A stretch of DNA of 63,860 bases, filler included. It is 4 parts of 4 records of this genome, joined end to end, with 100 filler letters (N's around TTAATTAATTAA, not from the genome) between each part and the next. Parts side by side here need not be neighbours in the genome. Positions count along the whole stretch, not along the records: positions 1 to 25,418 come from SRR2962707_2590; 3 more parts are not named here. The stretch is one strand, 5' to 3'. Below are positions 5,410 through 26,716 of this stretch, in pieces (the stretch's first letter is position 1; each line of letters begins with the position of its first letter). The notes beneath the pieces were generated by a model. The model saw nothing but the letters and a program-made list of their open reading frames with translations, was not told the DNA's origin and searched no databases. Made by a program: the position numbers and the translations under genes.

Positions 5410-5419
5410 GGGAGACACG

Positions 5420-6295: not shown

Positions 6296-6298
6296 AAC

Positions 6299-7360: not shown

Positions 7361-7383
7361 TGCAACCTTAATGGGAGGAAACC

Positions 7384-8610: not shown

Positions 8611-8636
8611 TCCGCTTTCAAAAGACCGAACTCAAA

Positions 8637-8669
8637 GCGCCGGGCTCCAGCAATGGGATCCGGCGTTTT
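8637..8669 (+). terminator. Putative intrinsic terminator
   Basis: GCGCCGGGCTCC-AGCAAT-GGGATCCGGCGT imperfect hairpin followed by Ts, just after the SBP stop. Confidence 0.5.
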
Positions 8670-8762
8670 ACGTGCAGGAGTTCTTGGCGAAATGGTCAAG
8701 CAGTCCGGGCCTCACATCTGCCCGTCTCGGGGAACCATGTGCAGCCATGGACCTTGAGTGAT

Positions 8763-9704
8763 TCATCCCATGGTGATGCCGTTCGCGAAAACATAGACTG
8801 CATAAAGTGATGTCGTGCCACAGATGAACAGCCGATTGCGCTTTGCGCCACCAAAAGTCAGATTGGCGACGATCTCGGGAATACGGATCTTGCCGATCAG
8901 CGTGCCGTCGGGATCGTAGCAATGCACGCCGTCAAAGGCGCTGGTCCAGATGCGGCCTTCGCGATCGACGCGGAAGCCGTCAAAGAAACCGGCGGTGCAG
9001 GATGCAAAAACGTCCCCGCCGCTGAGGGATCCGTAGTCTCCCACGTCGAAACGGCGAATATGGGCCGGTCCGCCCTGCAGGTGGGTTGCACCCGTATCGG
9101 AGATGTAGAGATGTTTCTCGTCCGGTGAGAACGCCAGCCCATTGGGTTGAACGAAATCATCCGTCATCTGGTGCCGGGGCCCGTCCGCCGGATCAATCCG
9201 GTAGACATGATTGCCTGTCAGCTCCGGAGTGCAAATGTCACCTTCATAATCTGTGAGAATGCCGTAGCTGGGATCTGAAAACCAGATCGACCCGTCCGAA
9301 TGCACAACCACGTCATTGGGCGAGTTGAGCCGCTTGCCGCCAAAGTTGTCAGCCAGCACGGTAATCGTGCCGTCATGTTCCGTGCGTGTCACACGACGGG
9401 TCAGATGCTCGCAGGTGACAAGCCTCCCCTGGCGGTCCACGGTGTTGCCGTTTGAATTGTTGGATGGCGACCGGAACACCGATGTCGAGCCGTCGGTTTC
9501 GTCCCACCGCATCATCCGGTTGTTGGGAATATCCGACCAGACCAGGTAGCGTCCGGCGGCAAACCACGCCGGCCCCTCACACCACCGCGCGCCGGTCCAC
9601 AGGCGTTCGACATGGATATGCGGAGCAAACAGGGCTGTAAAACGCGGATCAATCACCTCAAAGCCGGTCCCATCCAATGGGCCGATTACCGGATCTGTCG
9701 TCAT
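8763..9704 (-). CDS. SMP-30/gluconolactonase/LRE family protein
   Basis: WCEGPAW, SNGNTVDRQGRLVTCEH, LNSPNDVVV, PNGLAFSPDE and FDGFRVD motifs; RBS GGAGGA before the ATG at 9704. Confidence 0.92.
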   Translation of the reverse strand: MTTDPVIGPLDGTGFEVIDPRFTALFAPHIHVERLWTGARWCEGPAWFAAGRYLVWSDIPNNRMMRWDETDGSTSVFRSPSNNSNGNTVDRQGRLVTCEHLTRRVTRTEHDGTITVLADNFGGKRLNSPNDVVVHSDGSIWFSDPSYGILTDYEGDICTPELTGNHVYRIDPADGPRHQMTDDFVQPNGLAFSPDEKHLYISDTGATHLQGGPAHIRRFDVGDYGSLSGGDVFASCTAGFFDGFRVDREGRIWTSAFDGVHCYDPDGTLIGKIRIPEIVANLTFGGAKRNRLFICGTTSLYAVYVFANGITMG

Positions 9705-10097
9705 GTCGCATTCCTCCAATTCGCGGATCGCCACCCGCACTGCCGCGGGGGCAAGGCCTGGGCAGCCAATTTGGGACGTATGTCCAATTCCATGGTGAGT
9801 TTACCAGAGGCCTTGCCGGAGGAAAGAGCTCAATCCTGAGGGGGAGGATTACGTTGGAGCCTTATTCATCGCCTGACTGCACAGAGAACCTTGTTCAACC
9901 CAATCGATGTTGTCAAACTCCGGCGGCGGTCTTCGGCGGCCCAGGAGAACTGAATGTCAACGGCGAGCCCGCAATCCGGGCTGTCTTCCCTTTATAGCCT
10001 TCCGGGTGATTGTCGAATGTTGAGATTGTACAATTGCCACGAGCGTTGACATTTGCCTAGTATGAATACATTGTCGGTCCAGACAAGGGAGGCATCT

Positions 10098-11027
10098 GTG
10101 CGCAACGAACGTTCAACCGAAGACATCGCCATGGGAATCCGCAGACGGGTGTTCGAACACTCGATGCGCAACAATGGCGGTTATCTTAGCCAGGCCTGTT
10201 CAGCGGCTGAACAATTGGCGTTTTTGTACAATGAGGGCCTCAATCTCGGCGAGCCGGTGTTGCCCGCCGTCCCCAAGCCCTTTGCCGGCGTGCCGTCCGC
10301 CAACAATCCCGATTATGTTACCGGTGCCGGCTACAACGGCCCGTTCGAGCCGCAGTATGACCGCCTGTTCATCGCGCCGGCGCACTATGCGCTGGTCGCC
10401 TATGCGACACTGATCGAAACCGGCCGCATGGATGCTGAAGGCCTGGAAATGTTCAACAAGGACGGCTCGTCCGTGGAAATGATAGGCGCCGAACATTCGC
10501 CCGGCATGGAAGTCCACAACGGCACTTTGGGCATAGGCCTGTCGACCGGTGCAGGCCTCGCCTACGGCCGCAAGCGCCGCGGCGAGAGCGGCCAGACCTG
10601 CGTGTTCATGTCCGATGGCGAAGTTCAGGAAGGTCAGACCTGGGAAGCGGTCCAGGCCGCAGCCCACCACGGCATCGACAATCTCTGGGCGCTGATGGAC
10701 GTCAATGACCAGCAGTGTGATGGCGCGATGGATTCGGTCATGGAAGTCCGTGACATCGCCACCAAGTTCCGCGCCTTTGGCGCTGTCTGTGTCGAGATCG
10801 ATGCACATGACCTCGACGCCATGCGTCAGGCGAAGGCCGAGCCGCATGAAGGCCAGCCGCTGATCATTCTGGCACGCTCATCGCCGACAAAGGGCATGAG
10901 CTTCCTGCAGAAACGCTTTCCCCGTCTGCACTATGTGCGCTTCAAATCCGAAGAGGAGCGGGCAGAGATGAACATCTCGATTGCCGCCGAACTCGGTATC
11001 GACCCAATCGAACTGGAGACGCACTGA
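10098..11027 (+). CDS. Split transketolase, N-terminal ThDP-binding subunit (atypical active site)
   Basis: DRLFIAPAH, NGTLGIGLS and ThDP motif SDGEVQEGQTWEA...DVNDQQCDG. GTG start at 10098 follows GGGAGG. Confidence 0.9.
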   Translation: MRNERSTEDIAMGIRRRVFEHSMRNNGGYLSQACSAAEQLAFLYNEGLNLGEPVLPAVPKPFAGVPSANNPDYVTGAGYNGPFEPQYDRLFIAPAHYALVAYATLIETGRMDAEGLEMFNKDGSSVEMIGAEHSPGMEVHNGTLGIGLSTGAGLAYGRKRRGESGQTCVFMSDGEVQEGQTWEAVQAAAHHGIDNLWALMDVNDQQCDGAMDSVMEVRDIATKFRAFGAVCVEIDAHDLDAMRQAKAEPHEGQPLIILARSSPTKGMSFLQKRFPRLHYVRFKSEEERAEMNISIAAELGIDPIELETH

Positions 11028-12031
11028 TGGTTGAGATGGTCAGTCGCCCTTACGCCTCCGCATTCGAGGCCTTCGCGGTCAAGAATCCCGACGTCCTTTG
11101 CCTGTCCGCCGACCTGACCTCGTCCTGCGAGATCGACGGCTTCCGTGACCGGCATCCGGACCAGTTCCTGTCGCTCGGCATGGCCGAGCAGAACATGATG
11201 AGCTTTGCCGGCGGGCTTGGACTTGCCGGCTACCGGCCGTTCCTGCATTCCTTCGGCGTGTTCCTCTATCGCCGTCCTTACGATCAGTTGATGGCTTCCG
11301 TTGCCTATCCGCGCCGCAAGGTCCGGCTGATGGGTTTCCTGCCGGGCATCACCACGCCCGGCGGCATGACACACCAGGCCATTGAAGACATCGCCGTGAT
11401 GCGGTCGATTCCCAACATGTCGATCCTTGAGACCGGTGACGCGACCGAAGTCGAGAGCATCTGCGAAGCGGCCGACTCGATTGATGGTCCGGTTTACTGC
11501 CGGGTGCTGCGCGGCTCGGTGCCGCGGCTGTTTGACAGCCCGATCAAGGTCGGCGAGATGCGTGAGCTTTCCAGCGGCGCCGATGTTCTGGTGGTGACCT
11601 CAGGCATCGCCACCGAAGAAGCACTGCGCGCCCGCGACGCGCTGTCAAATGCTGGTGTTTCGATCAGGCACCTGCACATCCATACCATCAAGCCGTTCAA
11701 CGATCAGGCACTGCTCGACCATATTGGCTCGGTCTCGAAGGGTGTCGTGGTGCTTGAAAACCATGTCATCACAGGCGGCGTCGGGTCGCTGGTTGCCGAG
11801 ATCATGGCCGACAATGGTGTTGGCAAACCGCTGGTGCGACTCGGCCTCAACGACACCTACGCCCATGGCGGCTCGCGCGGCTATCTGATGAAGCATTACG
11901 GTCTCGACGCCGGTGCGCTGGTGCGCGGCATTGAGCGGGTCATGGGAATAGAGACCGGTATCGACGAGGAAGCTCTCGCCAGTGCCCGGGTTGATGCTGT
12001 GCACTCCGCCGTCAAGGCCGAGGCTCTCTAG
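11027..12031 (+). CDS. Split transketolase, C-terminal (pyrimidine-binding plus C-terminal) subunit
   Basis: ADL, GMAEQNMM, RRPYDQ, THQAIEDIAVMRSIPNM, TIKPF and ENH..GG.GS; translationally coupled to the N-terminal subunit (TGATG). Confidence 0.92.
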   Translation: MVEMVSRPYASAFEAFAVKNPDVLCLSADLTSSCEIDGFRDRHPDQFLSLGMAEQNMMSFAGGLGLAGYRPFLHSFGVFLYRRPYDQLMASVAYPRRKVRLMGFLPGITTPGGMTHQAIEDIAVMRSIPNMSILETGDATEVESICEAADSIDGPVYCRVLRGSVPRLFDSPIKVGEMRELSSGADVLVVTSGIATEEALRARDALSNAGVSIRHLHIHTIKPFNDQALLDHIGSVSKGVVVLENHVITGGVGSLVAEIMADNGVGKPLVRLGLNDTYAHGGSRGYLMKHYGLDAGALVRGIERVMGIETGIDEEALASARVDAVHSAVKAEAL

Positions 12032-12033
12032 AG

Positions 12034-13167
12034 ATGGCTGATGACACCCGGTTCCGTGTCCGCTACCGGCTGCTTGCGGACAGCCCGCAAGAGGCCGATC
12101 AACGTGCCCTCGGCATCGCACTGGAGCAGACCGTCGAGATCCCCGGCGACATCGTCCCGGCGGGCTATATCGCCGATGAGATCGTCGGCCAGATCGAGGG
12201 CGTTCGTCCACTGTCCGGCAATGCCTATGAGGCAGAGATCTCCTACAGCCCTGATAGCGCCGGTGACGAGGTCATCCAGCTGATCAACGTGATCTTTGGC
12301 AATTCCTCGATACAGCAGAATATCCGGGTCACCGGTTTCGAGCCGGGAAAGGTGATCCGGGAACGGTTCACCGGACCACGTTTTGGCATCGAAGGCGTTC
12401 GCGCCCGTTCGGGAAGAGCCAAAGGCGGCCTGATTTCGCCGGTGATCAAGCCGCAAGGTTCGAGCGTCAAGCAGCTTGCTGATATTGCTTACAGCTGCAC
12501 TCTGGGCGGCGCCGACATCATCAAGGATGACCACGGCCTCGCCAATCAGACATTTGCGCCGTTCGCAGACCGTGTAAACGTGATCAGCGAAGCAGTCGCA
12601 GACGCCAATGCAAAATCCGGCAATTCGGCGCTCTACTTCGTCAATGTGACCGGCCACACAGGTTCGCCCGTGGACGAAGCATTCAAGGCCAAGGAAGCCG
12701 GTGCCGGAGGCGTGTTGCTGATGCCCGGCCTGATGGGCTTCGGCGTGGTGCAGGCACTGGCGCGCGACCCGTCGTTTGATTTGCCGATCATGACCCACCC
12801 GAGCTTCACCGGCCCCTATGTGCTCACCCCCGAAACCGGGGTGGCGCACGCCATCATGTATGGTGTGTTCCAGCGTCTCGCAGGATCGGATATTTCGGTG
12901 TTCCCGAATGTCGGCGGCCGCTTCGGCTTCAGCGTCGATGAATGCCTTTCCATCGCCCAAGCCTGTCGTGATCCGGATGGGATCGGCCGGGCCATGATGC
13001 CGAGCCCGGGCGGCGGCATGAGCGTCGAACGCGCCGGCGACATGGTCTCGATGTATGGCGAAGACGTTGTCTTCCTGCTCGGAGGAAGCCTGCTGCGGGC
13101 CGGCGACGCTATCGGCGATGCAGTCCGCGCCATGCGTGACGCAATCGACAGTTTGAATACTGATTGA
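12034..13167 (+). CDS. RuBisCO-like protein (form IV RLP, KDDH type; probable 5-methylthioribulose-1-P / 5-deoxyribulose-1-P 1,3-isomerase)
   Basis: EQTVE, FGNSS, GPRFGIEG, IKPQG, GADIIKDDHGL (carbamylated-Lys motif with His in place of Glu), MTHPSFTG, FPNVGGRF, PSPGGG and LLGGS. Confidence 0.93.
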   Translation: MADDTRFRVRYRLLADSPQEADQRALGIALEQTVEIPGDIVPAGYIADEIVGQIEGVRPLSGNAYEAEISYSPDSAGDEVIQLINVIFGNSSIQQNIRVTGFEPGKVIRERFTGPRFGIEGVRARSGRAKGGLISPVIKPQGSSVKQLADIAYSCTLGGADIIKDDHGLANQTFAPFADRVNVISEAVADANAKSGNSALYFVNVTGHTGSPVDEAFKAKEAGAGGVLLMPGLMGFGVVQALARDPSFDLPIMTHPSFTGPYVLTPETGVAHAIMYGVFQRLAGSDISVFPNVGGRFGFSVDECLSIAQACRDPDGIGRAMMPSPGGGMSVERAGDMVSMYGEDVVFLLGGSLLRAGDAIGDAVRAMRDAIDSLNTD

Positions 13168-13195
13168 CCATTAAAGCTCTGTCCCTGAAGACTAT

Positions 13196-13225
13196 GGGGT
13201 TCGGTCGAAAGACCGGCCTTTTTTT
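13196..13225 (+). terminator. Intrinsic terminator of the transketolase-RLP operon
   Basis: GGTTCGGTC-GAAA-GACCGGCC followed by T7. Confidence 0.75.
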
Positions 13226-13248
13226 GGTCTGGGTACTGGAGGCCGCAC

Positions 13249-13279
13249 AAAAAAGGCCGCATCCGAGAATGCGGCCTTT
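13249..13279 (-). terminator. Intrinsic terminator of the sugar ABC operon
   Basis: AAAGGCCGCAT-CCGAGA-ATGCGGCCTTT hairpin with a preceding A run that reads as a T tract on the minus strand. Confidence 0.8.
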
Positions 13280-13303
13280 GCCATCCTGGGAGGATGTTGG
13301 GTA

Positions 13304-14359
13304 TTAGCGTGCAGGCAGCGGCATCCAGTCGGTCATGGCAACATCGGCATGAGCGAACTGAGGCATACTGGCCGACAGCTCTTCCATGTTCTTGATGTCG
13401 TTTTCAACCAGGAAGGACTGCGTGATCAGGGTTGGTGGCACCACGACCTGGGCATCCACATCACCACCGGTGAGCATGATAGCCAGAGCACGCACCGAGA
13501 CTTCACCGACAACGGCCGGATTGGTGGCAACAGTCGCTGCCCAGGCGCTGTCAGGCTCGCGCATTGCCGAGATGTCGGCGGTTGATACGTCAGCTGAATA
13601 GATCTTCACGTCCTGCGACAGACCGGCTTCATCAACAGCAATTTTCACGCCCTTGGCAAATTCGTCAAAGGGAGCAAAGAACACCGAGATGTCGGGATTT
13701 GCCTGCAGCACCGAACGGGCCTGGTTGGCGTTGGAGTTGGCGATTGGGTTGTCGAGCGTGCCCATCTGCGCCTTTTCGACGACGCCCGGATTGGCTGCCT
13801 TGAACTCTTCCCAGGCAACATGACGGCGGTCTAGCGGCGCAATGCCCGGCACATAGACATAGCCGGCATTCCACTCGGTGCCATTGTCCTTGGCCGCCTG
13901 TTCGAGCGCCAGTTTACCAAGCAGATAGTCCGACTGTTCGATCTGCGGAATTGCCGGGTTTTCAACATTCACGTCGAATGCGACGACCTTGATGCCCGCA
14001 TCGATGGCGCGCTGTGCGGCTTCCTGCATGGATTCGGTCAGGCCGTGCTGGATGATGATGCCATCAACGCCAAGCGCGATTGCCTGATCCACCATGTCTG
14101 CCTGCAAGGCGGCATCCTGACGGCTGTCGAGCACGCGCAGATCAACACCGAGTGCCGCGGCCTGCTTCTCAACGCCCGAAAGATAGGCCTGGAAGAAGTC
14201 GCCGGTGGAGAGATAGCGCACCAGCGCGATCTTCACGTCGCCGGGATTGTCCAGCGGTGCTGGCATGTCGGCAGCCTGCGCAAAGCCTGCGGGAAGGGTG
14301 ACGGCCGCGGCCGCAAGGCCTGCGAACAGGGCAAGTGCTTTTCTGCGTATGATTTTCAT
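13304..14359 (-). CDS. Sugar ABC transporter substrate-binding protein (candidate methylthioribose/deoxyribose binder)
   Basis: Signal peptide and RbsB-like type I PBP motifs (QADMVDQAIALGVDGIII, AGIKVVAFD). The ligand is inferred from adjacent mtnK/mtnA. Confidence 0.88.
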   Translation of the reverse strand: MKIIRRKALALFAGLAAAAVTLPAGFAQAADMPAPLDNPGDVKIALVRYLSTGDFFQAYLSGVEKQAAALGVDLRVLDSRQDAALQADMVDQAIALGVDGIIIQHGLTESMQEAAQRAIDAGIKVVAFDVNVENPAIPQIEQSDYLLGKLALEQAAKDNGTEWNAGYVYVPGIAPLDRRHVAWEEFKAANPGVVEKAQMGTLDNPIANSNANQARSVLQANPDISVFFAPFDEFAKGVKIAVDEAGLSQDVKIYSADVSTADISAMREPDSAWAATVATNPAVVGEVSVRALAIMLTGGDVDAQVVVPPTLITQSFLVENDIKNMEELSASMPQFAHADVAMTDWMPLPAR

Positions 14360-14391
14360 GCTGTTTTCCTCCGTTAAAGTATTGGTCTTGC

Positions 14392-15462
14392 TTAGTGGCC
14401 GCCGGCTTTTCTGGCCGACAGCGAAAAGGTGAAGACAAGGGCGATGACAAGCACCAGGCCCTTGATGAAATCCTGGGTGTAGTAGGGTGCGTTCATCATC
14501 GTCAGGCCCTGCAGCAGGATGCCGACGAACAGCGCGCCCATGGATGTGCCGAAAGCGTTCGGCTTGGCAGCACCCAGCACTGCGAAGCCGATCAACGAGG
14601 CGGCAACCGCATCAAGCAGCAGATTGGTGCCCGAGGCGATGTCACCGCGGCCCAGACGGGCAGCAAGCAGCATGCCGGCTATCGAGGCCAGGACGCCGGA
14701 GATCATGTAAGCCATGATCTTGTATTTGTTGACATTGGTTCCGGTCAGGCTCGCAGCCCGCTCGTTCGAGCCGATGGCATACATCAGACGGCCGTGGCGG
14801 GTGAGCTCAAGGAAAATCCAGACCAGAATGCCAATCGCAACAAGGAAGATGACCGGGGCCGGGAGCAGGTTTTCCAGCATGAAATCGAACCGGTGACGGC
14901 CAAGCTGCAGGAACAGCGGCGAAAAGGTGCCTTCGGCGGTGGTGCCGTCGGGCAGCGTCATGCCCATGGCGATCGAGCGGCCTTCGGTGGGAATCCGTTG
15001 CAGGCCAACCAGCAGGAACATCATGCCAAGGGTGGCCAGGAGATCAGGGACCTTGGTCTTGACGATCAGCAGGCCGTTGATCAGACCGATGACGGCGCCC
15101 ATGACGAGGCAGGCAACAATTGCGACGAAGGCGGATTGTTCCAGCACCACCATCATATAGGCCGCCAGCATCATCGACGAGGTGGCGACCGAACCGATCG
15201 ACAGGTCGAACCCGCCGACCACCAGCGTACAGGTGACGCCGAGCGCCAGAATGCCGGTAATGGCCACCGACTGGAAAATGAACACGGCACTGCGCGGGCC
15301 GGCAAAACCGTTGGCAAAGACCGAGAAGAAAATTACCAAGCCAAGCAGCAACGCCAAAAAGCCGTAACGGATAGCAATGTCGAGCAGGCCTGCTGATCGT
15401 GGCTGTGGTTTGCCTGCTCCAGGAGTGGTGCTGCCGGAAATGTCTGTCTGGTCCATGCTCAT
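14392..15462 (-). CDS. Sugar ABC transporter permease (RbsC-like)
   Basis: GGFDLSIGS, PDLLATLG and GRLMYAIGSNERAA motifs. Confidence 0.92.
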   Translation of the reverse strand: MSMDQTDISGSTTPGAGKPQPRSAGLLDIAIRYGFLALLLGLVIFFSVFANGFAGPRSAVFIFQSVAITGILALGVTCTLVVGGFDLSIGSVATSSMMLAAYMMVVLEQSAFVAIVACLVMGAVIGLINGLLIVKTKVPDLLATLGMMFLLVGLQRIPTEGRSIAMGMTLPDGTTAEGTFSPLFLQLGRHRFDFMLENLLPAPVIFLVAIGILVWIFLELTRHGRLMYAIGSNERAASLTGTNVNKYKIMAYMISGVLASIAGMLLAARLGRGDIASGTNLLLDAVAASLIGFAVLGAAKPNAFGTSMGALFVGILLQGLTMMNAPYYTQDFIKGLVLVIALVFTFSLSARKAGGH

Positions 15463-16991
15463 GCGTGTGCTGTCCTTGCGGCGCTGCCGTTATCTGCCGG
15501 CATGGCCCCGGTTACTGCGGTCAGGATCTCATTGAGATCCACGTTCTCGTTTCTGAATTCTGCCGAGACCGAGTGCTCGGTCATGACGATGATACGGTCG
15601 GCGACTTCAAGTGCCTCGTCGAGTTCGGAGACGAACACCAGCGTCGCGCGGTTTTTCGCGGTTTCGCGGATCTTGCGGCCAATGTCTCTGCGGGCGCGGA
15701 TATCGACGCCCTGGAACGGCTCGTCGAGCAGCAACAGCCGGCATTCCTCGGCCAGCCAGCGCGCCAGCATGACTTTCTGCTGGTTGCCGCCCGACAGCGT
15801 GCCGATGGAATCGGTCTCGCCCTGGCAGACAATCGACAACGCCTCGATCATCTCGTTGGCGGTGCGGCGCTCGTCCGAACGCTTGATGAACGACAGGTTC
15901 GAATAGCGCGCCAGGAAGGGCAGGGTGATGTTGCGGGTGATGTCGAAATCGGCAACCACGGCATTGTTGGCGCGGTCTTTCGAAGACATGAACACGCCAC
16001 TCTTGATGGCGGCTTGCGGACTTGTCGGCGCATGGTCCTGGCCATCGATCCGGATTCGCCCGCTTGCCGGACGCCCCAGCCCGAACAGGCTTTGTGCGAA
16101 AGCGCTCTTGCCGCTGCCGAGCAGGCCGGTCACTGCGACAATTTCATTTTCGCACAGATCGAAATCGAATGCTGCGCTGTTGGGAAGCAGTCGCAGATCG
16201 CTGACCTCGAGCACGCGCTTGCCGGGAGCAGGAATGGCGATGTCGACATCGGTCATCCGGTGGCCGAGCATCGCATTGACCGCGCCCTCGTAGTCGAGGG
16301 CTTCGCCTTCAAAAACGCCGGAGATTTCACCGTCGCGCATCGACACGATCCGGTCGGCGATACGGCGGATATCGGACATGCGGTGCGAGATATAAAGCAC
16401 AGCCACACCCTTGGCCGACAGTCGTTCGATCAGCAGAAACAACCGTTCGGCTTCCGAGGCTGACAGCGACGATGTTGGTTCGTCGAGAATGAGCAGTTGC
16501 GGATCGTGCGCCATGGCACGCGCGATGGCGATCAGCTGCCGGTCTGCAACGCCGAGTTCTGCAACGGATTGCCGGACATTGAGTGACAAGCCCATCTGGC
16601 TGGCAATGCGTTCCGCTTCGGCATAGTTTTGCTTGCGCTTGAGGAAGAAGCCGTAGCCCGGTTCTGCCAGCCGGTCGATCAGCAGGTTGGAGGCGACATC
16701 GAGATCAGGGATCACCCCATCATTGATGTTCTGGTGGACAGTTACCACACCGGCACGGATGGCTGCCGACGGGCTTGATGGTCGGAAATCCTTGCCAAGC
16801 AGGCTGATGGAGCCAGAGTCGAGTGCGTGCACACCGCTAAGGATTTTGACCAGAGTGGACTTGCCCGCGCCATTGGCGCCCATCAGCACAGTGACGGATC
16901 CCGCAGGCAGCGACAGGTTGAGCTGTTTGAGGACGCGATTGTCCCCGAACGACTTATCCACGCCCCGCAGATCGCAAAGAGTTCCGTTCAT
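15459..16991 (-). CDS. Sugar ABC transporter ATP-binding protein (RbsA-like, tandem NBDs)
   Basis: GANGAGKS, LILDEPTSSLS, YISHRM, LSGGNQQKV and DEPFQGVD. Confidence 0.93.
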   Translation of the reverse strand: MNGTLCDLRGVDKSFGDNRVLKQLNLSLPAGSVTVLMGANGAGKSTLVKILSGVHALDSGSISLLGKDFRPSSPSAAIRAGVVTVHQNINDGVIPDLDVASNLLIDRLAEPGYGFFLKRKQNYAEAERIASQMGLSLNVRQSVAELGVADRQLIAIARAMAHDPQLLILDEPTSSLSASEAERLFLLIERLSAKGVAVLYISHRMSDIRRIADRIVSMRDGEISGVFEGEALDYEGAVNAMLGHRMTDVDIAIPAPGKRVLEVSDLRLLPNSAAFDFDLCENEIVAVTGLLGSGKSAFAQSLFGLGRPASGRIRIDGQDHAPTSPQAAIKSGVFMSSKDRANNAVVADFDITRNITLPFLARYSNLSFIKRSDERRTANEMIEALSIVCQGETDSIGTLSGGNQQKVMLARWLAEECRLLLLDEPFQGVDIRARRDIGRKIRETAKNRATLVFVSELDEALEVADRIIVMTEHSVSAEFRNENVDLNEILTAVTGAMPADNGSAARTAHA

Positions 16992-17024
16992 GCTGTCCTC
17001 CCGCTATGATGAAAACAGCAGCAG

Positions 17025-17053
17025 TGACAAAAGTCAATACGTATTGACAAATG
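17025..17053. promoter_or_regulatory. Putative SorC-family operator in the ABC/mtnK divergent promoter
   Basis: TGACAAAAGTCAATACGTATTGACAAATG. It contains the perfect palindrome GTCAATACGTATTGAC and matches the reverse complement of 20505-20533 at 24 of 29 positions. Confidence 0.7.
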
Positions 17054-17114
17054 ATTGATACCGACACTAGGCTTGGTCAACGAGCAGCCTGGACTGTCAA
17101 CTGGGAGGATAGTT

Positions 17115-18377
17115 TTGAGCAACAACTACAAACCTTTATCGCCGGAAAGCCTGGGTCAGCGCCTGGGTGATCTTGATGTCATGAACAAGGCTGTCGGCAG
17201 CAATGTTGATGCCTGGACGGTACGGGAAGTCGGTGACGGCAATCTCAATCTCGTCTTTATTGTGGAAGGCGATGCAGGAAGCGTTATCGTCAAGCAGGCG
17301 CTTCCCTATGTGCGTCTGGTCGGTGACAGCTGGCCACTGCCGCTCAAGCGCGCCTTTTTTGAATATCATGCGTTGACCCGCCAGGAAGCTCGGGATCCGG
17401 GCAGTGTTCCCGAAGTCCTGCATTTCGATGAGGAGCAAGCGCTGATCATCATGGAACGCCTGCAGCCCCATATTATTCTGCGCCAGCAGACCATGGAAGG
17501 GCGCAAGGTTGCGGGACTTGGCAAGGCCTTGGGATTGTTTACTGCACGCACGGCGTTCCGTGGGTCGGATTTGTCAATGACGGCCGGAGACAAGAAAGCC
17601 GACGTCGCCCTGTTCGCCGGCAATGTCGAGCTTTGCGACATCACCGAGTCGCTGGTCTTCAATGATCCCTACTATGACGCGGAGATGAACCGGCACACCA
17701 CGCCGCAGCTTGACGGCATTGTTGCCGAACTGCGCAGCGACATCGCGCTCAAGGTGGAAGTCCAGCACATGAAGCGGGCGTTCACCTCCCGCGGCGAAAC
17801 CATGTGCCATGGCGACCTGCACGCTGGCTCGATCATGGTGACCGATAACCAGTCACGGATCATCGATCCGGAATTTGCCTATTACGGGCCTTTCGGCTTC
17901 GACATCGGCATGCTGATCGGCAATTACCTGATGGCCTATCACGCCATGCCGGCCCATATCTCCGATGCCGACGAGTGCCGGGATTTTCAGGACTGGATCC
18001 TCTCCGTCATTGCGGAAACCTGGTCTGTCTTCCGGGAAGAGTTTTTGCGCCTGTGGCGCACCGAGCGGACCGGCATCCTCTATCCGAAGGCGCTCTACGA
18101 GGATCAGGGGCATCACTTCGCTTCTGAAAGCGCTGCCGAACAGCTGCTGGGAGAGATTTTCCGCGATCTCGTTGGCTTCGCCGGTATTGAAATGCACCGC
18201 CGTATTCTGGGACTGGCTCATGTCGCCGAACTCGATACCATCGAGGACGAGGATCTCAAGGCGCGTTGCGAAGCCAAGTGCCTGAAGCTGGGGCAATTCC
18301 TGGTCATCAACAGAAATCGCCTGACGGGCATGGATGCCGTACTGGCAGCAGCGCAGCGCGCTGAAACGGGAGCATAA
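17115..18377 (+). CDS. mtnK: S-methyl-5-thioribose kinase
   Basis: [55 protein letters not shown] and [12 protein letters not shown] start at 17115 follows GGGAGG. Confidence 0.96.
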
Positions 18378-18379
18378 GA

Positions 18380-19483
18380 ATGAAGGTTGGCGATACAAAT
18401 TACCGATCGATATGGTTTGATGGTGAAAAGGCCAAGGTCCAGATCATTGACCAGCGCTGGCTGCCGCATGAATTCCGGGTGGTCGAACTCGACACGCTTG
18501 ACGAATTCGCAACCGCAATCCGCGACATGTGGGTGCGCGGCGCGCCGTTGATCGGTGCCACTGCCGCTTATGGCGTCGCCATCGAAATGCAGCGCGATGC
18601 CTCTGATGCGGCGCTCGACAATGCCTGGGAGCGGTTGCACGAGACCCGGCCGACAGCGGTCAATCTGCGCTGGGCGCTTGATGAAATGCGCCAGGCGCTT
18701 GGCGGTCTTGCCGAAAACGAGCGCGCGACGGCCGCCTTCCGCAAGGCTCAGGACATCTGCGATGCCGATGTCGAGACCAACCGGATGATCGGCGTTCATG
18801 GTCTGGAGATCATCAAGAAGATAGCGGCGACCAAGAAGCCCGGTGAAGCCGTCAACATTCTCACCCACTGCAATGCAGGCTGGCTGGCGACGGTGGATTG
18901 GGGCACTGCCACCTCGCCGATGTATCACGCGGCAACCGCTGGCATTCCCATCCATGTCTGGGTCGACGAAACCCGGCCGCGCAACCAGGGCGCACAGTTG
19001 ACCAGCTGGGAAATGAACAGCCACGGTATCCCGCATCATCTCATTGTCGACAATGCTGGCGGACATCTGATGCAGCATGGCGAAGTCGATCTGGTTATCG
19101 TCGGCACTGACCGGACCACGGCCTCGGGCGATGTTTGCAACAAGATCGGCACCTATCTCAAGGCACTGGCCGCACACGACAACAATGTGCCGTTCTATGT
19201 GGCCCTGCCTTCGAGCACGATCGACTGGACCGTCGATGATGGCGTCCGTGAAATCCCGATCGAGGAGCGTGACGACCGCGAGGTCACCCACGTCTTCGGT
19301 CGCCTGGAAGACGGCAGCGTCACTTCGGTGCAGATCTCGCCCGACGGCACGCCCGGTGGCAACCCGGCTTTCGATGTGACGCCGGCGCGGCTGGTCACCG
19401 GCCTGATCACCGAGCGCGGTGTCGCCGAAGCCACTCGTGAAGGTCTGTTGGGTCTGTTTCCGGAGCGCCGCAACGCTGCCTGA
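18380..19483 (+). CDS. mtnA: S-methyl-5-thioribose-1-phosphate isomerase
   Basis: [51 protein letters not shown] and NPAFDVTP. Confidence 0.97.
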
Positions 19484-19510
19484 GTGTCACTCGCCTGAGG
19501 CGTAGTTGTC

Positions 19511-20482
19511 TCAGGCGAGGTCCATCATCGCGGCTGCGCAACTCTGGTTCGTCACCACATGGGTGGCGTATCCACCCCGGATGGCGGCAACGGCAGCCGG
19601 CACGCGTTCCTCGCCCACCGACACCAGGATGCCCATGTCGCGGTGGCGCAATTCTTCGAGCTCGATGCCCATCATGCGGTCATCGAGGGGGCCGCTGACC
19701 GGGTCGCCCTTGGCATCGATAAAGCGTCCGCACATCACCCCGACCGCACCTTGCGCGATATAGTCTTCCAGCTCCTGCTGCGTGGCGACGCCGCTGGACG
19801 CGACATGACTGTCGGGATTGCACGAGCCGACGGCAAACAGCGTCTTGTTGCAGTCTCTGATGGCGTCGAGCTGCTTGGCGATCAGCGATTCCGCGCGGAG
19901 TGTGGCCGCGATTTCGGCGGTGCTCAGGATTGCCGGTACATGCAGGTTGATGCACTTGGCAGAGAATTTCCGCGCCACGTTGGAGGAGCAAACGTCAGCC
20001 GAGAAGCCGTAGGGCGTGGCCATCGAACCAACCAGTTGCAGCACCGTGAGATCGGGAATGGTGGTCTGCTCAAGCCGTTCGGCAACATCGTAGATGGTCT
20101 TGCCCCAGGCAACGCCGAGCCGGTCGCCCGGCTCAAGCAGGCTTGGTAGCCAGTCCGCCGCTCCGCGTATGATGCGGCTTGCGTGGTCGTCCTGGCCGCC
20201 CGTGCCATCGGGGAGGATATAGGCAGCCTTGAGGCCGAAACGGTCGCGCAGATCCAGCGCCGCGCGGTGCGTGTTGAAAGCTTCAGGCGACAGTTTGGTG
20301 TGGATGTAGCCGCGTTCCCGCGCTTCCTGCAGGTAATTCACCACGGTCGCCCGCGAAACCAGCAACTTGTTGGCTATCTCGCTTTGATTGAGTCCGTCGT
20401 GGTAATAAAGCCAAGCGGTTTCGACGACGATATCCTCGCCGCTGATTTGTTTGGTAGAGCGCCTGGTAGAGTTCTGAGGCAT
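19511..20482 (-). CDS. SorC/DeoR/LsrR-family sugar-binding transcriptional regulator
   Basis: AWLYYHDGLNQSEIA...VSRATVVNYLQEARERG HTH and a sugar-binding domain (GVAWGKT, GAVG..GRFIDA.G). Confidence 0.93.
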   Translation of the reverse strand: MPQNSTRRSTKQISGEDIVVETAWLYYHDGLNQSEIANKLLVSRATVVNYLQEARERGYIHTKLSPEAFNTHRAALDLRDRFGLKAAYILPDGTGGQDDHASRIIRGAADWLPSLLEPGDRLGVAWGKTIYDVAERLEQTTIPDLTVLQLVGSMATPYGFSADVCSSNVARKFSAKCINLHVPAILSTAEIAATLRAESLIAKQLDAIRDCNKTLFAVGSCNPDSHVASSGVATQQELEDYIAQGAVGVMCGRFIDAKGDPVSGPLDDRMMGIELEELRHRDMGILVSVGEERVPAAVAAIRGGYATHVVTNQSCAAAMMDLA

Positions 20483-20504
20483 TTCAATCCATCATCAATA
20501 TATA

Positions 20505-20537
20505 CATTTGACAATAGACAATGACTTTTGTCAAATG
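20505..20537. promoter_or_regulatory. Putative SorC-family operator between the regulator and the aldolase/SDR gene
   Basis: Inverted repeat CATTTGACAA-N13-TTGTCAAATG. It contains TGACTTTTGTCA, the exact reverse complement of 17025-17036. Confidence 0.7.
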
Positions 20538-20566
20538 AAGCAAGTTCACATGGGCAGGAGACGGTA

Positions 20567-22639
20567 ATGCGGCAAAACAGATGGAATGACAAGGAAGCCC
20601 AGGCGCGGGTTGATGCGGCGGGCTCTGATCCTGCAGACCAGACGCTGGCTTTGAGGGTCTACTCGTCCCGCATTATCGGCTCCGATCCGGACCTTGTCAT
20701 GCATGGCGGCGGCAATACCTCGGTCAAGACCCAGCGCAAGGATCTGTTTGGCGTCATGCAGAAAGTGCTGCACGTCAAGGGTAGCGGATGGGACCTCGAT
20801 ACGCTGGAAGCCCCGGGCCTGCCCGGCGTCCGGCTCGCGCCTCTGCTCGAGATGCGCAAGCTCGATGCCCTGTCCGACGAGGACATGGTCAACATGCAGC
20901 GTTCCAACCTGCTCGATTCGAGCGCGCCCAACCCGTCGGTTGAAACCTTGCTGCACGCTTTCCTGCCGCACACTTTTGTCGATCATACTCACGCGACGGC
21001 GTTTCTGGCGCTGGCAAACCTGCCGAATGCCGAAGCCGCGATCCGCGAGATCTTCGGTGACCGGTTGGCGGTTGTCCCCTATATCATGCCCGGTTTTGCA
21101 TTGGCGAAGAAGGCAGCCGAGGTGTTTGACGCAAACCCTGATTGCGAAGGTCTGATCCTGCTCAAGCACGGCCATTTCACTTTCGGTGACACTGCGCGGG
21201 AAAGTTATGACAAGGTCATCGAGCACACCAACATGGTCGAGGACTGGTTGGAGGCACGTGAGAATGGCCGCAAGTTTGATCTCACCGTAAACCGGAACCG
21301 CTCGCTGCCCGATTCCGATCTGGCAGCTTCCGTCCTGCCGGTTCTGCGCGGCGCCATTGGGCGTTTGCGCGGTGAGCATCACAAGGCTGCGCCGCGGCCT
21401 GTGGTGATGGACGTCAGGGTCGGCGAGGTAATTGACGCCTTTCTGAACCGCGCCGATCTGGAAGAGCTTTCGCAACGCGGCGTCGCTTCACCTGATCATG
21501 TCATCCGTACCAAGGGCCGCATGCTGGTTCTCGGCAAGGATGATCTCGCCAAGGGACGCGCCGGGATCGAAGCCAAGATCACGGAATTCGCCCAGGCCTA
21601 CCGCGCCATGTTCGACGCCCAGTTCAAGCGCGTAGGCGGCGGCAAGACCATGCTTGAGCCGCACCCTTGCGTGGCCTGGGTTGAAGGTCTCGGCATCATC
21701 GGCATCGGCAAGGATGCCTCTGCCGCTTCTGCAGCCGCGGATATCGCCGAGCAGACTGTCGAGGTGATGACGCTTGGTGAAGCTGCCGGCGGTTTTCATC
21801 CGATCGGCCCCGATGATCTGTTCGACTTGGAATACTGGTCGCTGGAACAGGCCAAGCTGGCCAAGGCTGCAGCCAAGCCCTTTACAGGACAGGTTGTCGC
21901 GGTGACCGGCGGCGCCGGCGCCATCGGGCTTGCCACTGCGAAGGCGTTTGCGCGTGAGGGCGCTGCGGTGGCGCTGATCGATTTCAATCCTGAAGCCTGC
22001 AAGGCCGCTGCCGCCTCGATCGGTCCAAACTGCCTCGCAGTGGTGGCCGATCTAACCGCAAAGGGTTCCGCCGACAAGGCGGTGGCCGAAATCGTCGACC
22101 GCTTCGGCGGGCTCGACGTGCTCGTCTCCAATGCAGGCGCTGCCATTCAGGGCATGCTGCTCGATCTCGACGAGGAGACGCTGCGCTCAAGCTTTGAGCT
22201 TAATTTCTTCTCGCATCTGGCTATGGCGCGGGCTGCGGCACAGGTGTTTGCGGCGCAGGACCATGGCGGGCAAATGCTGTTCAATGTGTCAAAGCAGGCG
22301 GTCAATCCCGGTAAGGGGTTCGGTGCGTACGGGCTTCCCAAGGCCACAACGTTCTTCCTCGTCAGGCAGCTGGCGCTTGAGCTCGGCGCTTCCGGTGTCC
22401 GGGTCAATGGCGTCAATGCCGACCGCATCCGCTCTGGCCTGCTGACCGATGACTTCATCAAGTCGCGTGCCGAGGCGAGGGGCGTTTCCGCATCCGACTA
22501 CATGGCGGGCAACCTGCTCAAGGCCGAGGTCGAAGCGCACCATGTTGCTGACGCTTTCATGGCGCTCGCCAGGTCAGAGCGGACAACAGCCCATGTGATC
22601 ACCGTGGACGGCGGCAACATCGAGGCAGCCCTACGTTAG
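20567..22639 (+). CDS. Bifunctional class II aldolase / short-chain dehydrogenase (rhamnulose-1-P aldolase/SDR-like fusion)
   Basis: HGGGNTSVK, PSVETLLHA..DHTHA and KHGHFTFG (class II aldolase); C-terminal TGGAGAIG, VSNAG and YGLPK (SDR). Confidence 0.92.
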   Translation: MRQNRWNDKEAQARVDAAGSDPADQTLALRVYSSRIIGSDPDLVMHGGGNTSVKTQRKDLFGVMQKVLHVKGSGWDLDTLEAPGLPGVRLAPLLEMRKLDALSDEDMVNMQRSNLLDSSAPNPSVETLLHAFLPHTFVDHTHATAFLALANLPNAEAAIREIFGDRLAVVPYIMPGFALAKKAAEVFDANPDCEGLILLKHGHFTFGDTARESYDKVIEHTNMVEDWLEARENGRKFDLTVNRNRSLPDSDLAASVLPVLRGAIGRLRGEHHKAAPRPVVMDVRVGEVIDAFLNRADLEELSQRGVASPDHVIRTKGRMLVLGKDDLAKGRAGIEAKITEFAQAYRAMFDAQFKRVGGGKTMLEPHPCVAWVEGLGIIGIGKDASAASAAADIAEQTVEVMTLGEAAGGFHPIGPDDLFDLEYWSLEQAKLAKAAAKPFTGQVVAVTGGAGAIGLATAKAFAREGAAVALIDFNPEACKAAAASIGPNCLAVVADLTAKGSADKAVAEIVDRFGGLDVLVSNAGAAIQGMLLDLDEETLRSSFELNFFSHLAMARAAAQVFAAQDHGGQMLFNVSKQAVNPGKGFGAYGLPKATTFFLVRQLALELGASGVRVNGVNADRIRSGLLTDDFIKSRAEARGVSASDYMAGNLLKAEVEAHHVADAFMALARSERTTAHVITVDGGNIEAALR

Positions 22640-23924: not shown

Positions 23925-24005
23925 GGCTTAGAATGCCAGCACACGGTTCTGAGGAGAATCGGTGCTGATCGTCATTGCGACGGAATTTACCCAACGGAGG
24001 ATAAT

Positions 24006-25418
24006 ATGCTCAGGAAGAAGACAAATGGGGTTGCGCGAGGCCCCCGGCTGTCCTCGACGGTAGCAGAGCTCGGAGTGACGGCGATCGATCGCCGGACATT
24101 CCTCAAGCGTTCGGGTCTCACCATTGGTGGGGCTGCAGCCATTTCCACGCTTTCGGGCGGAATGGTCAAACGGGCAGAAGCTCAGACAGCCGCAGGCACC
24201 GGAAACGTCGAAACCAAGAAATCGATCTGTACGCATTGTTCGGTCGGTTGCACGGTGATTGCCGAGGTCGAAAACGGCGTTTGGACACGTCAGGCTCCTG
24301 GCTATGATTCTCCTTTCAATCTTGGCGCCCATTGCGCCAAGGGCGCATCCGTCCGCGAGCACGCGCACGGCGACCGCCGGTTGAAATATCCGATGAAGCT
24401 GGTCGGCGGAAAATGGCAGCGCGTCTCCTGGGACGATGCCATCAACGAGATCGGCGACAAGATGCTTGAGGTGCGTGAAGCCTCCGGACCGGATTCGGTC
24501 TACTGGCTCGGCTCCGCCAAGCATTCCAACGAGCAGGCTTATCTGTTCCGCAAGTTCGCGGCTTACTGGGGGACGAACAACGTCGACCACCAGGCCCGCA
24601 TTTGCCATTCGACCACGGTGTCCGGTGTTGCCAACACCTGGGGCTATGGCGCGATGACCAACTCCTACAACGACATCCACAAGGCCAAGTCGATGATCCT
24701 GATCGGATCGAACCCGGCCGAGGCGCATCCGGTGTCGCTGTTGCATCTTCTCAAGACCAAGGAAGAAAACAACGCGCCGATGATCGTTTGCGATCCGCGC
24801 TTTACCCGCACGGCGGCGCACGCCGATGAGTTCGTGCGGTTCCGGCCCGGATCCGACGTGGCCCTGATCTGGGGCATTCTCTACCACATTTTCGAGAATG
24901 GCTGGGAAGACAAGGAATACATCCGGACCCGCGTCTGGGGCATGGATCAGATCCGTGATGAAGTGAAGAAATGGAACCCGGCGGAAGTCGAACGGGTGAC
25001 CGGCGTTCCGGGCACACAGCTGGAGCGGGTAGCCCGCACGCTGGCTGACAACCGTCCCGGCACCCTGATTTGGTGCATGGGTGGCACGCAGCACTCCAAC
25101 GGCTCGTCCAATACCCGCGCTTATTCGATCCTGCAGCTGGCGCTGGGCAACATCGGCAAGAGCGGCGGCGGCGCCAACATTTTCCGCGGCCATGACAACG
25201 TGCAGGGCGCAACCGATCTGGGCGTGCTCGCAGATACGCTGCCGGGCTATTTCGGCCTGACGGCAGGAGCTTATGCACACTGGGCGCGCGTCTGGGGTGA
25301 AGATCTTGACTGGCTCAAGGGCCGTTTTGCCACCATGAAAGGCAAGGACGGAAAGAACAAGGCGATGATGAACGAGACCGGTATCCCGGTATCGCGCTGG
25401 ATCGACGGTGTTCTGGAA
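24006..25418 (+). CDS. fdhA: Tat-exported formate dehydrogenase alpha subunit (Cys type), truncated by the contig end
   Basis: DRRTFLK Tat signal, CTHCSVGC...HCAKG [4Fe-4S] motif, active-site DHQARICHS and RGHDNVQGATD. Confidence 0.93.
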
Positions 25419-25518
25419 NNNNNNNNNNNNNNNNNNNNNNNNNNNNNNNNNNNNNNNNNNNNTTAATTAATTAANNNNNNNNNNNNNNNNNNNNNNNNNN
25501 NNNNNNNNNNNNNNNNNN
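25419..25518. other. Artificial contig linker (N44-TTAATTAATTAA-N44)
   Basis: N runs flank a six-frame stop sequence; the genes on both sides are truncated. Confidence 0.99.
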
Positions 25519-26095: not shown

Positions 26096-26177
26096 GGTTT
26101 TCTCCTTCTATAAAGCGCCCCTTCATTGGTAGATGCGCCCGCTTTGCGGCACGCCCCTATTGTGGGCCTCGTAAAGA

Positions 26178-26206
26178 AAATGGCGATGACCAGTGTTCAG
26201 TTCAAG
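26178..26206 (-). promoter_or_regulatory. Candidate sigma32 (RpoH) promoter of clpB
   Basis: The minus strand reads CTTGAA-N17-CCATTT upstream of a heat-shock gene. Confidence 0.45.
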
Positions 26207-26393
26207 AGGTCAGGGCAAGAGAATCTTGTCAAAAAGGCTTTCTTTTTCCGTCGCCGTCTCTCAGAGGAACCGTTTAAAAAGATGTATATTCTTCACAAGT
26301 TAAGCCAACTTCAAACCCATATAGTCATCGCCTCTTTCCCAGTTCATGATGACTTAAAGCTTTGTGTGCAGACATCAGAAAAAGGGGGCCGAG

Positions 26394-26648: not shown

Positions 26649-26716
26649 ACCGGGCTTGACCCTTTTGTCACAAGCCGCAACAAGGGCCCGACATTCCACA
26701 AAACCGAGGGCCCACC

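Follow-up and report, generated by a model that had tools for sequence, protein, structure and literature searches.

A RuBisCO-like protein paired with a remodelled split transketolase in a conserved, predicted methylthioribose/5-deoxyribose cluster of a marine bacterium

A cluster of ten genes at positions 10098-22639 of the 63,860-nucleotide stretch of DNA analysed here (the window), which comes from a marine bacterium, raises the question of what a transketolase could do next to a form IV RuBisCO-like protein (RLP). The genes of the two subunits of a split transketolase (TktN and TktC, together TktNC) directly precede that of the RLP, and this tktN-tktC-RLP trio is accompanied by a three-gene ATP-binding cassette (ABC) importer, mtnK-mtnA, a SorC-family regulator and a fusion of a class II aldolase to a short-chain dehydrogenase (SDR). 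A previous reading of the sequence alone (the sequence-only reading) had listed nine linked genes plus the regulator, and all ten were confirmed. Domain scans of the open reading frames (ORFs) of the cluster and its flanks found no cupin and no MtnB, MtnC or MtnD, again in agreement with that reading. 5-Methylthioribose and 5-deoxyribose are sugar by-products of S-adenosylmethionine reactions. We think it likely, with considerable room for doubt, that the cluster works as a regulated unit by which one or both of these sugars are imported and metabolised, with two exits, one of which would lead from the RLP to TktNC. The feature itself is real and strongly conserved, and it represents a new variant of the known salvage of S-adenosylmethionine by-products.

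The conservation of the gene neighbourhood was assessed in one genome per prokaryote species, which yielded 80 loci with relatives of the RLP at 42-90% identity; neighbours were counted at an identity of at least 40% in a stored flank of up to 10 kb. TktC was found in 68 of the 80 loci and TktN in 63, followed by MtnA (52), the sugar-binding protein and the permease of the importer (49 each), its ATPase (48), MtnK (46) and the SorC regulator (21). The aldolase domain was near the RLP in 32 loci, with many copies truncated by the locus edge. The linkage of the cluster genes is far beyond chance, and the recurrence of the RLP with the transketolase pair, mtnK-mtnA and the aldolase, on which the sequence-only reading depended, was thereby confirmed. 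Loci that carry TktC span Pseudomonadota, Chloroflexota, Bacillota and other phyla, and 49 of the 68 transketolase-bearing loci also contain MtnK or MtnA. Among the transketolase loci covered over the full 21 kb (n=47), 38 had MtnK or MtnA, and nine, including one Syntrophomonas and one Thiohalocapsa genome, had the trio alone. Therefore, tktN-tktC-RLP is the conserved core, with the importer, kinase, isomerase and aldolase as a frequent add-on, and the description of the cluster as self-contained is not strictly correct.

The complete ten-gene arrangement recurs on plasmid pOANT04 of Brucella anthropi ATCC 49188 (locus L110, 1-12107), where the RefSeq names of the three core genes are generic only. 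This 57-kb plasmid is predicted to be non-mobilizable. RLP relatives with 32-53% identity were present on 25 further plasmid records, from Ensifer, Rhizobium, Shinella, Ponticoccus and others. R. etli was absent from the plasmid matches listed (25 of 26), and a study of the Rhizobium etli RLP does not state its RLP type (PMC8914248). In a Chloroflexota version of the cluster (L062, Anaerolineales, 4060-18562), mtnA is present as two paralogues, a short-chain dehydrogenase stands by itself, and an additional gene for an SBP_bac_1 binding protein comes after the RLP. At L044 (8952-12701), an RLP that is 53% identical and groups with the transketolase-linked side of the tree is located between a gene for a xylose-isomerase-like TIM-barrel protein and one for an FGGY sugar kinase. 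The RLP of L044, whose genome is without a TktC orthologue, may serve another job.

The RLP gene (12034..13167, + strand) encodes a form IV protein of what we call the transketolase-linked subclade. Its RuBisCO_large domain (PF00016) scored 71.6 bits against a cut-off of 30.1, and it stayed below the cut-off on all NCBIfam RuBisCO and MtnW models, with the MtnW enolase model as the best NCBIfam match. The best solved relative was 3qfw (243 bits), followed by 4nas (142 bits) and the MtnW structures (130-134 bits). We take 3qfw to be RLP1 of Rhodopseudomonas palustris, a name that the structure match itself did not give. For comparison with cupin-linked RLPs, a sample of 401 alphaproteobacterial genomes was used, 18 of which had an RLP match: one at 90% identity (the proxy itself, i.e., a relative of the window organism that stands in for its genome), one at 60% and sixteen at 35-39%. 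A small cupin homologue adjoins the RLP in all 16 loci at 35-39% identity, and the adjacent ORF passed the Pfam Cupin_2 model in all ten cases tested. A cupin beside the RLP is the arrangement described for Rhodospirillum rubrum and R. palustris. TktN, TktC, MtnK and MtnA were near the RLP in none of these 16 loci. In a tree, the 16 cupin-linked RLPs formed one clade (SH-aLRT, a likelihood-ratio support value, of 100), separated by a long branch from 81 rows that include the window RLP. By this placement, the window RLP is a sister type of the characterised, cupin-linked group and not a member of it. Its earlier description as an R. rubrum-type RLP could not be upheld as close membership, since it lies outside that clade at about 36% identity and across a branch with 100% support.

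The two RLP clades nevertheless have 64 positions that are invariant and identical in both, including K139, K164-D-D166-H167, H255, N292 and R296, and the window protein has the shared active-site motifs K-P-x-G, K-D-D-H, H-P and P-N-x-G-G-R. The catalytic roles of these positions are presumably those of the corresponding RuBisCO motifs. It is plausible that the window RLP is a 1,3-isomerase of 5-methylthio- or 5-deoxy-ribulose-1-phosphate, with the same chemistry as the characterised group.

The strongest evidence on the relation between the cupin and the transketolase comes from longer RLP proteins of algal type. These comprised 39 fused forms, namely five RLP-TktN-TktC proteins, 25 RLP-cupin proteins and nine with other or unknown extensions. 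The five transketolase fusions (1135-1185 aa), one of which is named from the diatom Thalassiosira profunda, carry the TktNC substitutions described below, except that position 100 is Leu and not Met. The fused cupin matched a profile of the bacterial RLP-adjacent cupins with 99.2% probability. In a joint tree, all fused RLP domains but one formed a clade of 38 (support 98), in which the five transketolase fusions nested among cupin fusions (7 rows, support 99). This group sits on the transketolase-linked side of the tree, apart from the bacterial cupin-linked clade, and a single clade for all cupin-partnered RLPs, a group defined after the tree was seen, was rejected in an approximately unbiased (AU) test (p 1.7e-9). 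Closely related RLP domains are thus fused to the cupin in some proteins and to the transketolase in others, and therefore the two enzymes look like alternative users of one RLP product. This suggests that cupin and transketolase are interchangeable partners of the RLP. Other long forms were also seen: seven RLPs of about 680-756 aa (P0121-P0126 and P0131) have an N-terminal extension of ~280-350 residues, for which no Pfam match was found in the five scanned (one with a below-threshold match only), and P0152 is an RLP fused to DUF5714. RLP ORFs of 514-703 aa that had looked like TktC-RLP fusions were rejected because BLAST identified them as ORFs over-extended in another frame.

The same alternation was seen in whole genomes. 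A profile built from ten RLP-adjacent cupins found no match in four transketolase-type genomes, three of them labelled complete (control, 1.6e-80), and a single-sequence query with such a cupin found none in five proxy genomes. A generic Cupin_2 search of three proxies gave 11-21 matches each, which was uninformative, and was replaced by this profile. Conversely, five cupin-type genomes had no TktC relative above 36% identity. The proposal that the transketolase replaces the cupin fits the fusion pattern and the missing cupin of four related genomes.

The other part of the trio is the split enzyme of the thiamine diphosphate (ThDP) type. The tktN gene (10098..11027, +) encodes the N-terminal, diphosphate-binding subunit (Pfam Transketolase_N, 62.4 bits), and tktC (11027..12031, +), whose start overlaps the stop of tktN, encodes the pyrimidine-binding and C-terminal subunit (Transket_pyr, 86.8 bits; Transketolase_C, 66.5 bits). 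The tktN ORF is open from TTG 10053; however, GTG 10098, the start given in the sequence-only reading, is the more likely one because it lies ~6 nt past the Shine-Dalgarno sequence AAGGGAGG and because the homologues begin at about this position in an alignment with relatives. The best solved relatives of both subunits are those of the split transketolase of Carboxydothermus hydrogenoformans, 6yak for TktN and 6yaj for TktC (E 7.9e-56), and 1-deoxy-xylulose-5-phosphate (DXP) synthases are the next-best solved relatives of TktC. Both subunits remained below every curated transketolase and DXP synthase cut-off. On the best transketolase model, NF004559, which describes a full-length enzyme, TktN scored 133.3 and TktC 184.3 bits against 488, and TktC scored 161.6 against 465.95 on the DXP synthase model TIGR00204.

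TktNC was compared in an alignment with five full-length transketolases, among them E. coli TktA, and with three split paralogues of trio-bearing genomes. In the E. coli numbering, the ligands of ThDP and Mg, Asp155 and Asn185, are retained by all 62 family members, as are the catalytic residues Glu411 (64 of 65, one gap), His473 (65 of 65), His66 (61 of 62) and His261 (nine of nine representatives). The phosphate-site residues Ser385, Arg520 and Arg358 (as Arg or Lys) are also kept in the TktC family. His26 of transketolase binds the hydroxyl of the ketol donor. In all 62 TktN family members His26 is replaced by Tyr (Tyr44) and His100 by Met (Met143), whereas both histidines are kept in all eight comparison transketolases. 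Thus, the label 'atypical split transketolase' proved apt, with the changes located at the residues that read the terminal hydroxyl of the donor. In E. coli transketolase, His100 and His473 are reported to hydrogen-bond this terminal OH, the variants H100L/F/Y take pyruvate, which has a methyl group in its place, and Asp469 is a hot spot for acceptor specificity (bioRxiv 10.1101/719906). An insert of 27 residues (TktN residues ~66-92, window 10250-10340; ~PxPFxGVPSxxNxxxxTGAGYNGP) is present throughout the family, including the diatom fusions, and is missing from all comparison transketolases. Canonical full-length transketolases are encoded elsewhere in proxy genome G001. A hydrophobic residue 100 combined with a largely kept phosphate site fits a phosphorylated ketose without a C1 hydroxyl. 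1-Methylthio- or 1-deoxy-xylulose-5-phosphate would be such a substrate, and the loss of Asp469 and His461, considered below, leaves room for another. Two of the split paralogues, L104 (Chloroflexota) and L108 (Syntrophomonas), keep His26, His100 and His261 and are without equivalents of His461 and Asp469; therefore, remodelled split transketolases are not confined to the RLP-linked family.

The importer, MtnK and MtnA could supply the RLP with its substrate. The importer is of the ribose type (CUT2) and consists of a periplasmic sugar-binding protein (13304..14359, −; Peripla_BP_4, 119 bits), a permease (14392..15462, −; BPD_transp_2, 146 bits) and an ATPase with two ABC domains (15459..16991, −; two ABC_tran stretches, 171.7 bits). 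Next to it are mtnK (17055..18377, +), predicted to encode a kinase for 5-methylthioribose and probably also 5-deoxyribose (TIGR01767, 484 bits against a cut-off of 275), and mtnA (18380..19483, +), predicted to encode a methylthioribose-1-phosphate isomerase (TIGR00512, 435.5 against 279). Both pass the equivalog cut-offs and are thus of the types that serve the dihydroxyacetone phosphate (DHAP) shunt and 5-deoxyribose salvage. The putative SorC/DeoR-type, sugar-phosphate-sensing regulator (19511..20482, −) has an N-terminal helix-turn-helix and the sugar-binding domain PF04198 (196.7 bits, cut-off 27) that define its family; it scored 204.5 bits on the DeoR model (cut-off 420) and 128 bits, below the cut-off, on the LsrR model. 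The fusion gene (20528..22639, +) passes NF006192 (886 against 639) and contains an Aldolase_II domain (74 bits, cut-off 22.2) and an adh_short domain (125 bits). On TIGR02632, the model of the RhaD aldolase-alcohol dehydrogenase fusion, it scored 467 against 567.75. We infer that it is a ribulose-1-phosphate aldolase, yielding DHAP and an aldehyde, with a built-in aldehyde oxidoreductase. A 167-aa ORF that recurred in 26 loci was rejected as a gene, as it is an antisense frame of aldolase-SDR.

The source of the sugar was considered in five proxies (G001, G002, G003, G413 and G414). MtnP, the methylthioadenosine (MTA) phosphorylase (TIGR01694), was over the cut-off in none of the five (best match, 102 bits against 274.85), nor was MtnN, the MTA/S-adenosylhomocysteine nucleosidase, and no acireductone dioxygenase was found in them. 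The presence of an importer and MtnK, with neither MtnP nor MtnN passing in these relatives, fits the scavenging of an external sugar.

In the pathway that we propose, the ribose-type importer would bring the sugar inside, MtnK would phosphorylate it, and MtnA would convert the phosphorylated sugar to the ribulose-1-phosphate. From this intermediate, the first exit would be a variant of the DHAP shunt, in which the Aldolase_II domain splits the ribulose-1-phosphate into DHAP and 2-(methylthio)acetaldehyde or acetaldehyde, and the fused dehydrogenase domain converts the aldehyde. In the second exit, the RLP would shift the carbonyl in the manner of its R. rubrum and R. palustris counterparts. 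The product would be 1-methylthio-xylulose-5-phosphate or, from the deoxy sugar, 1-deoxy-xylulose-5-phosphate, and TktNC would then do the job that is done elsewhere by the cupin methylsulfurylase. TktNC would hold the 5-phosphate via the retained Arg, Ser and Arg, and the pocket formed by Met and Tyr in place of His100 and His26 would fit a C1 group other than hydroxyl. Cleavage between C2 and C3 would give glyceraldehyde-3-phosphate and a ThDP-bound C2 unit, which could leave as an aldehyde, or lose methanethiol by beta-elimination to become acetyl-ThDP. A more specific version of this last step, which we put forward tentatively and consider rather doubtful, is that TktNC is a new ThDP lyase that replaces the glutathione-dependent cupin, converting 1-methylthio-xylulose-5-phosphate to glyceraldehyde-3-phosphate with beta-elimination of methanethiol, and passing acetyl-ThDP on as acetate or acetyl phosphate. 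In the same tentative version, the loss of methanethiol from the C2 unit would resemble the loss of water in phosphoketolase.

The claim that the cluster serves catabolism rather than methionine salvage could not be upheld in that form, since methanethiol may still be released and reused. In two genomes, a gene for O-acetylhomoserine sulfhydrylase (TIGR01326, 643 against 495) lies just upstream of tktN-tktC (L113:5683-7077, −; L011:4720-5991, −). The two genomes represent one lineage, and in one of them tktN-tktC is unlinked from the RLP. This neighbour is a weak hint at the reuse of methanethiol.

Several observations weigh against the proposed pathway, and we gather them here. The whole route is predicted from the genes, and two exits from one intermediate look redundant. 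In the RLP, which at about 36% identity to the characterised members may form a different product, nine fixed positions set the two clades apart, and the transketolase-linked one has an insert of six residues that includes a conserved His. In TktC, Asp469, which in ordinary transketolases binds the hydroxyl adjacent to the aldehyde of glyceraldehyde-3-phosphate, is replaced by Gly in all 65 family members and the phosphate-site residue His461 by Leu in all nine aligned representatives, so that a substrate resembling xylulose-5-phosphate fits less well; the five full-length transketolases retain both residues, as does L103, a canonical split paralogue. In six loci that extend far enough upstream, five of them with full flanks, the RLP has no adjoining transketolase, and six more are too short to tell. 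For three such RLPs (L008, L009 and L020), TktC is located elsewhere in the genome, with 75-83% identity, and the genomes of L043 and L044 have no TktC orthologue, in a search that covered five of these six genomes. Furthermore, most of the fusion proteins are metagenome predictions without a name, the grouping used in the AU test was chosen with the tree in view, and the proxy genomes are only relatives of the window organism.

If TktNC does not cleave the RLP product, it may instead be a carboligase that joins a non-hydroxylated donor, such as pyruvate or the aldehyde made by the aldolase, to a phosphorylated aldehyde and acts before or beside the RLP, with the removal of toxic (methylthio)acetaldehyde as one possible role. 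The change of His100 to a hydrophobic residue is the one reported to enable the use of pyruvate as donor in engineered transketolases (bioRxiv 10.1101/719906), and the 161.6 bits of TktC on TIGR00204, together with the DXP synthases as next-best solved relatives, point in the same direction, although this score is far under the DXP synthase cut-off of 465.95. The cluster also makes an aldehyde, provided that the aldolase domain works as we suppose; however, the trio occurs without a nearby aldolase or MtnK/MtnA in nine of the 47 fully covered loci. In the known pathway, moreover, the cupin acts after the RLP, as reported in PMC5893883, and it is the alternative fusion partner of closely related RLP domains, which places the transketolase after the RLP too. 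In addition, joining the aldehyde to glyceraldehyde-3-phosphate would just remake the RLP product. We regard this carboligase as unlikely.

Another explanation keeps the order of the two enzymes and changes the reaction of the RLP. The RLP subclade would then enolise or tautomerise a derivative of methylthioribulose-1-phosphate, perhaps one made by the aldolase-family domain or the dehydrogenase, and the ThDP enzyme would cleave a different ketol or a diketone. In favour of this, MtnB dehydratases belong to the Aldolase_II family too. The distance of the RLP from the cupin-linked clade (about 36% identity, a long branch and 100% support), the nine clade-specific switches and the insert with its conserved His are all consistent with a changed reaction, as is the MtnW enolase model being its best NCBIfam match, albeit below the cut-off. 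The loss of Asp469 and His461 likewise suggests a TktNC substrate unlike xylulose-5-phosphate beyond C3. On the other hand, RLP domains from the transketolase side of the tree are fused to the very cupin family that adjoins the RLPs of the R. rubrum arrangement, and this fusion argues that transketolase-side RLPs make the substrate of that cupin. The 64 invariant positions common to both clades, including the KDDH motif, argue likewise for a common reaction, and aldolase-SDR is missing from many trio loci. A different RLP reaction thus seems to us decidedly improbable. It is very improbable indeed that the true substrate is some unrelated pentose or signal sugar, for instance ribose or an autoinducer-2 (AI-2)-like compound, handled by ordinary pentose-phosphate chemistry, with misleading MtnK and MtnA names, because the resemblance of the importer parts to ribose, arabinose and AI-2 systems and the 128 bits of the regulator on LsrR are outweighed by MtnK and MtnA clearing their equivalog cut-offs by wide margins, a binding protein far under every named sugar model (RbsB, 57.8 bits against 337), a transketolase without the His100 and Asp469 needed for ordinary ketose donors and acceptors, and the canonical full-length transketolases elsewhere in G001.

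The proposed pathway of import, phosphorylation, isomerisation and two exits is closest to two known systems. In the MTA-isoprenoid shunt of R. rubrum and R. palustris, which uses MtnP, MtnA, the DeepYkr RLP1 and a cupin methylsulfurylase, the RLP is reported to isomerise methylthioribulose-1-phosphate, and the cupin then releases methanethiol and DXP (PMC5893883). The cluster resembles it in having MtnA followed by a form IV RLP with 3qfw as best relative and with the K, KDDH, H, N and R positions in common. It differs in that the cupin was found neither in the cluster nor in the proxies (none of four by profile), with a remodelled split ThDP enzyme instead, and in that entry would be via the importer and MtnK and not via MtnP, which none of five proxies has over the cut-off. 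Also, the RLP is about 36% identical and belongs to a separate clade, and the product would be a triose phosphate, not DXP. The DHAP shunt and 5-deoxyribose salvage employ MtnK or DrdK, MtnA or DrdI, and the class II aldolase Ald2 or DrdA (PMC6079011), and the cluster similarly contains a kinase, an isomerase and a class II aldolase domain side by side. Here, however, the aldolase forms one protein with a short-chain dehydrogenase, the set includes an ABC importer and a SorC regulator, and the RLP/transketolase trio adds a second exit. Growth of E. coli on 5'-deoxynucleosides via the DHAP shunt has been reported (PMC10986504), and therefore 'eating' S-adenosylmethionine by-products is not new in itself.

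The individual enzymes have relatives as well. TktNC has the two-subunit architecture of the C. hydrogenoformans split transketolase (6YAK/6YAJ), the best solved match for both subunits. Nevertheless, TktN aligns with it over residues 101-289 only (118.6 bits), and the TktNC family replaces His26, His100, His461 and Asp469, has the 27-residue insert and falls short of the NCBIfam transketolase cut-offs. With the engineered transketolases of E. coli and G. stearothermophilus (H100L/F/Y; H102L/F/T; D469), TktNC has in common a hydrophobic residue 100 and the loss of Asp469, and such laboratory changes at H100 and D469 are described as opening transketolase to donors without a terminal hydroxyl and to unusual acceptors (bioRxiv 10.1101/719906). 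Those enzymes are laboratory variants for synthesis with pyruvate, whereas TktNC is a natural, conserved family that also has Tyr for His26 and Leu for His461 and whose substrate is predicted from sequence. The rhamnulose-1-phosphate aldolase/dehydrogenase fusion (TIGR02632) has the same two-domain Aldolase_II and SDR architecture as the fusion of the cluster, which differs in missing the TIGR02632 cut-off, in passing NF006192, a model of unnamed function, and in being linked to mtnK/mtnA and not to rhamnose genes. In Synechococcus elongatus, the ordinary, canonical transketolase reportedly acts on a sugar derived from 5-deoxyadenosine. The bioactive sugar 7-deoxysedoheptulose is made there from 5-deoxyribose by promiscuous enzyme activity (PMC8102628), with no RLP and no dedicated enzyme, unlike in the cluster.

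The layout of the cluster is that of operons, with genes that overlap or almost abut. A terminator-like hairpin with a T-run (13201..13225, +; stem 13201-13216) directly follows the RLP gene and closes the tktN-tktC-RLP unit. The motif TTGWCRAATG, a candidate shared operator or -35 element, occurs in the tktN promoter region (10010..10019, +) and in the divergent ABC/mtnK promoter region (17044..17053, +), where it is conserved in place in L001-L006 and L010. An inverted pair of the motif (CATTTGACAA ... TTGTCAAATG, 20505..20537) forms a candidate operator in the divergent sorC/aldolase-SDR promoter region, with its first half-site conserved in L001-L004 and its second matched in L001, L003 and L004. 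The motif has four matches in the 63.9-kb window, all inside the three promoter regions of the cluster, a count that is partly circular as the motif was derived from those same regions. For this reason, and because it overlaps the -35-like TTGACA, it is a candidate operator only, and of this degenerate motif the position alone is suggestive. The 10-mer TTGACAAATG, allowing one mismatch, was rejected as an enriched motif, with six matches in the window against 5.13 expected. The three promoter regions are probably controlled by the SorC-type repressor.

The flanks of the cluster contain a SMP-30/gluconolactonase-like gene, a branched-chain-type ABC system, a TorD-like chaperone and a molybdopterin oxidoreductase. 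The nearest protein relatives bear Hoeflea names, with identities of up to 95%. Elsewhere in the window, the G+C content drops from about 0.60 to 0.51-0.55 at 24000-37000, 44000-52000 and 58000-62000, and an ORF of 1926 aa is located at 40568-46348 (−).

A full-text search, which left out the founding papers on the R. rubrum pathway and the RLP reviews and may have missed an earlier mention of the neighbourhood, found no publication in which an RLP is connected with a transketolase in the metabolism of methylthioribose or 5-deoxyribose. RLP and transketolase are treated separately in the excerpts of PMC7895386, PMC11267869 and PMC6389311. The novelty of the pairing, which the sequence-only reading had left to the literature, is thus consistent with the papers searched.

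Methylthioadenosine and 5'-deoxyadenosine arise from S-adenosylmethionine in every cell, and what becomes of their sugar moieties is still being worked out. So far, canonical salvage, the DHAP shunt and the isoprenoid shunt are the known routes. The RLP and transketolase module would be a further branch, shared by several bacterial phyla, carried on plasmids of rhizobia and of Brucella anthropi and, in a diatom, fused into one protein. Many proteins that are annotated as 'RuBisCO large subunit C-terminal-like' and 'transketolase' would thereby gain a function, and TktNC would be a natural transketolase that takes non-hydroxylated donors, which protein engineers had to build. Because marine carriers have the importer and MtnK and apparently neither MtnP nor MtnN, the sugars may be public goods that are swapped between algae and bacteria. 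If the doubtful beta-elimination by TktNC were true, the cells would have a route free of a thiol cofactor that recovers the sulfur of methylthioribose as methanethiol for methionine, along with all five of its carbons. Its users would range from Chloroflexota and marine alphaproteobacteria to diatoms, in the latter with a single RLP-TktN-TktC protein.

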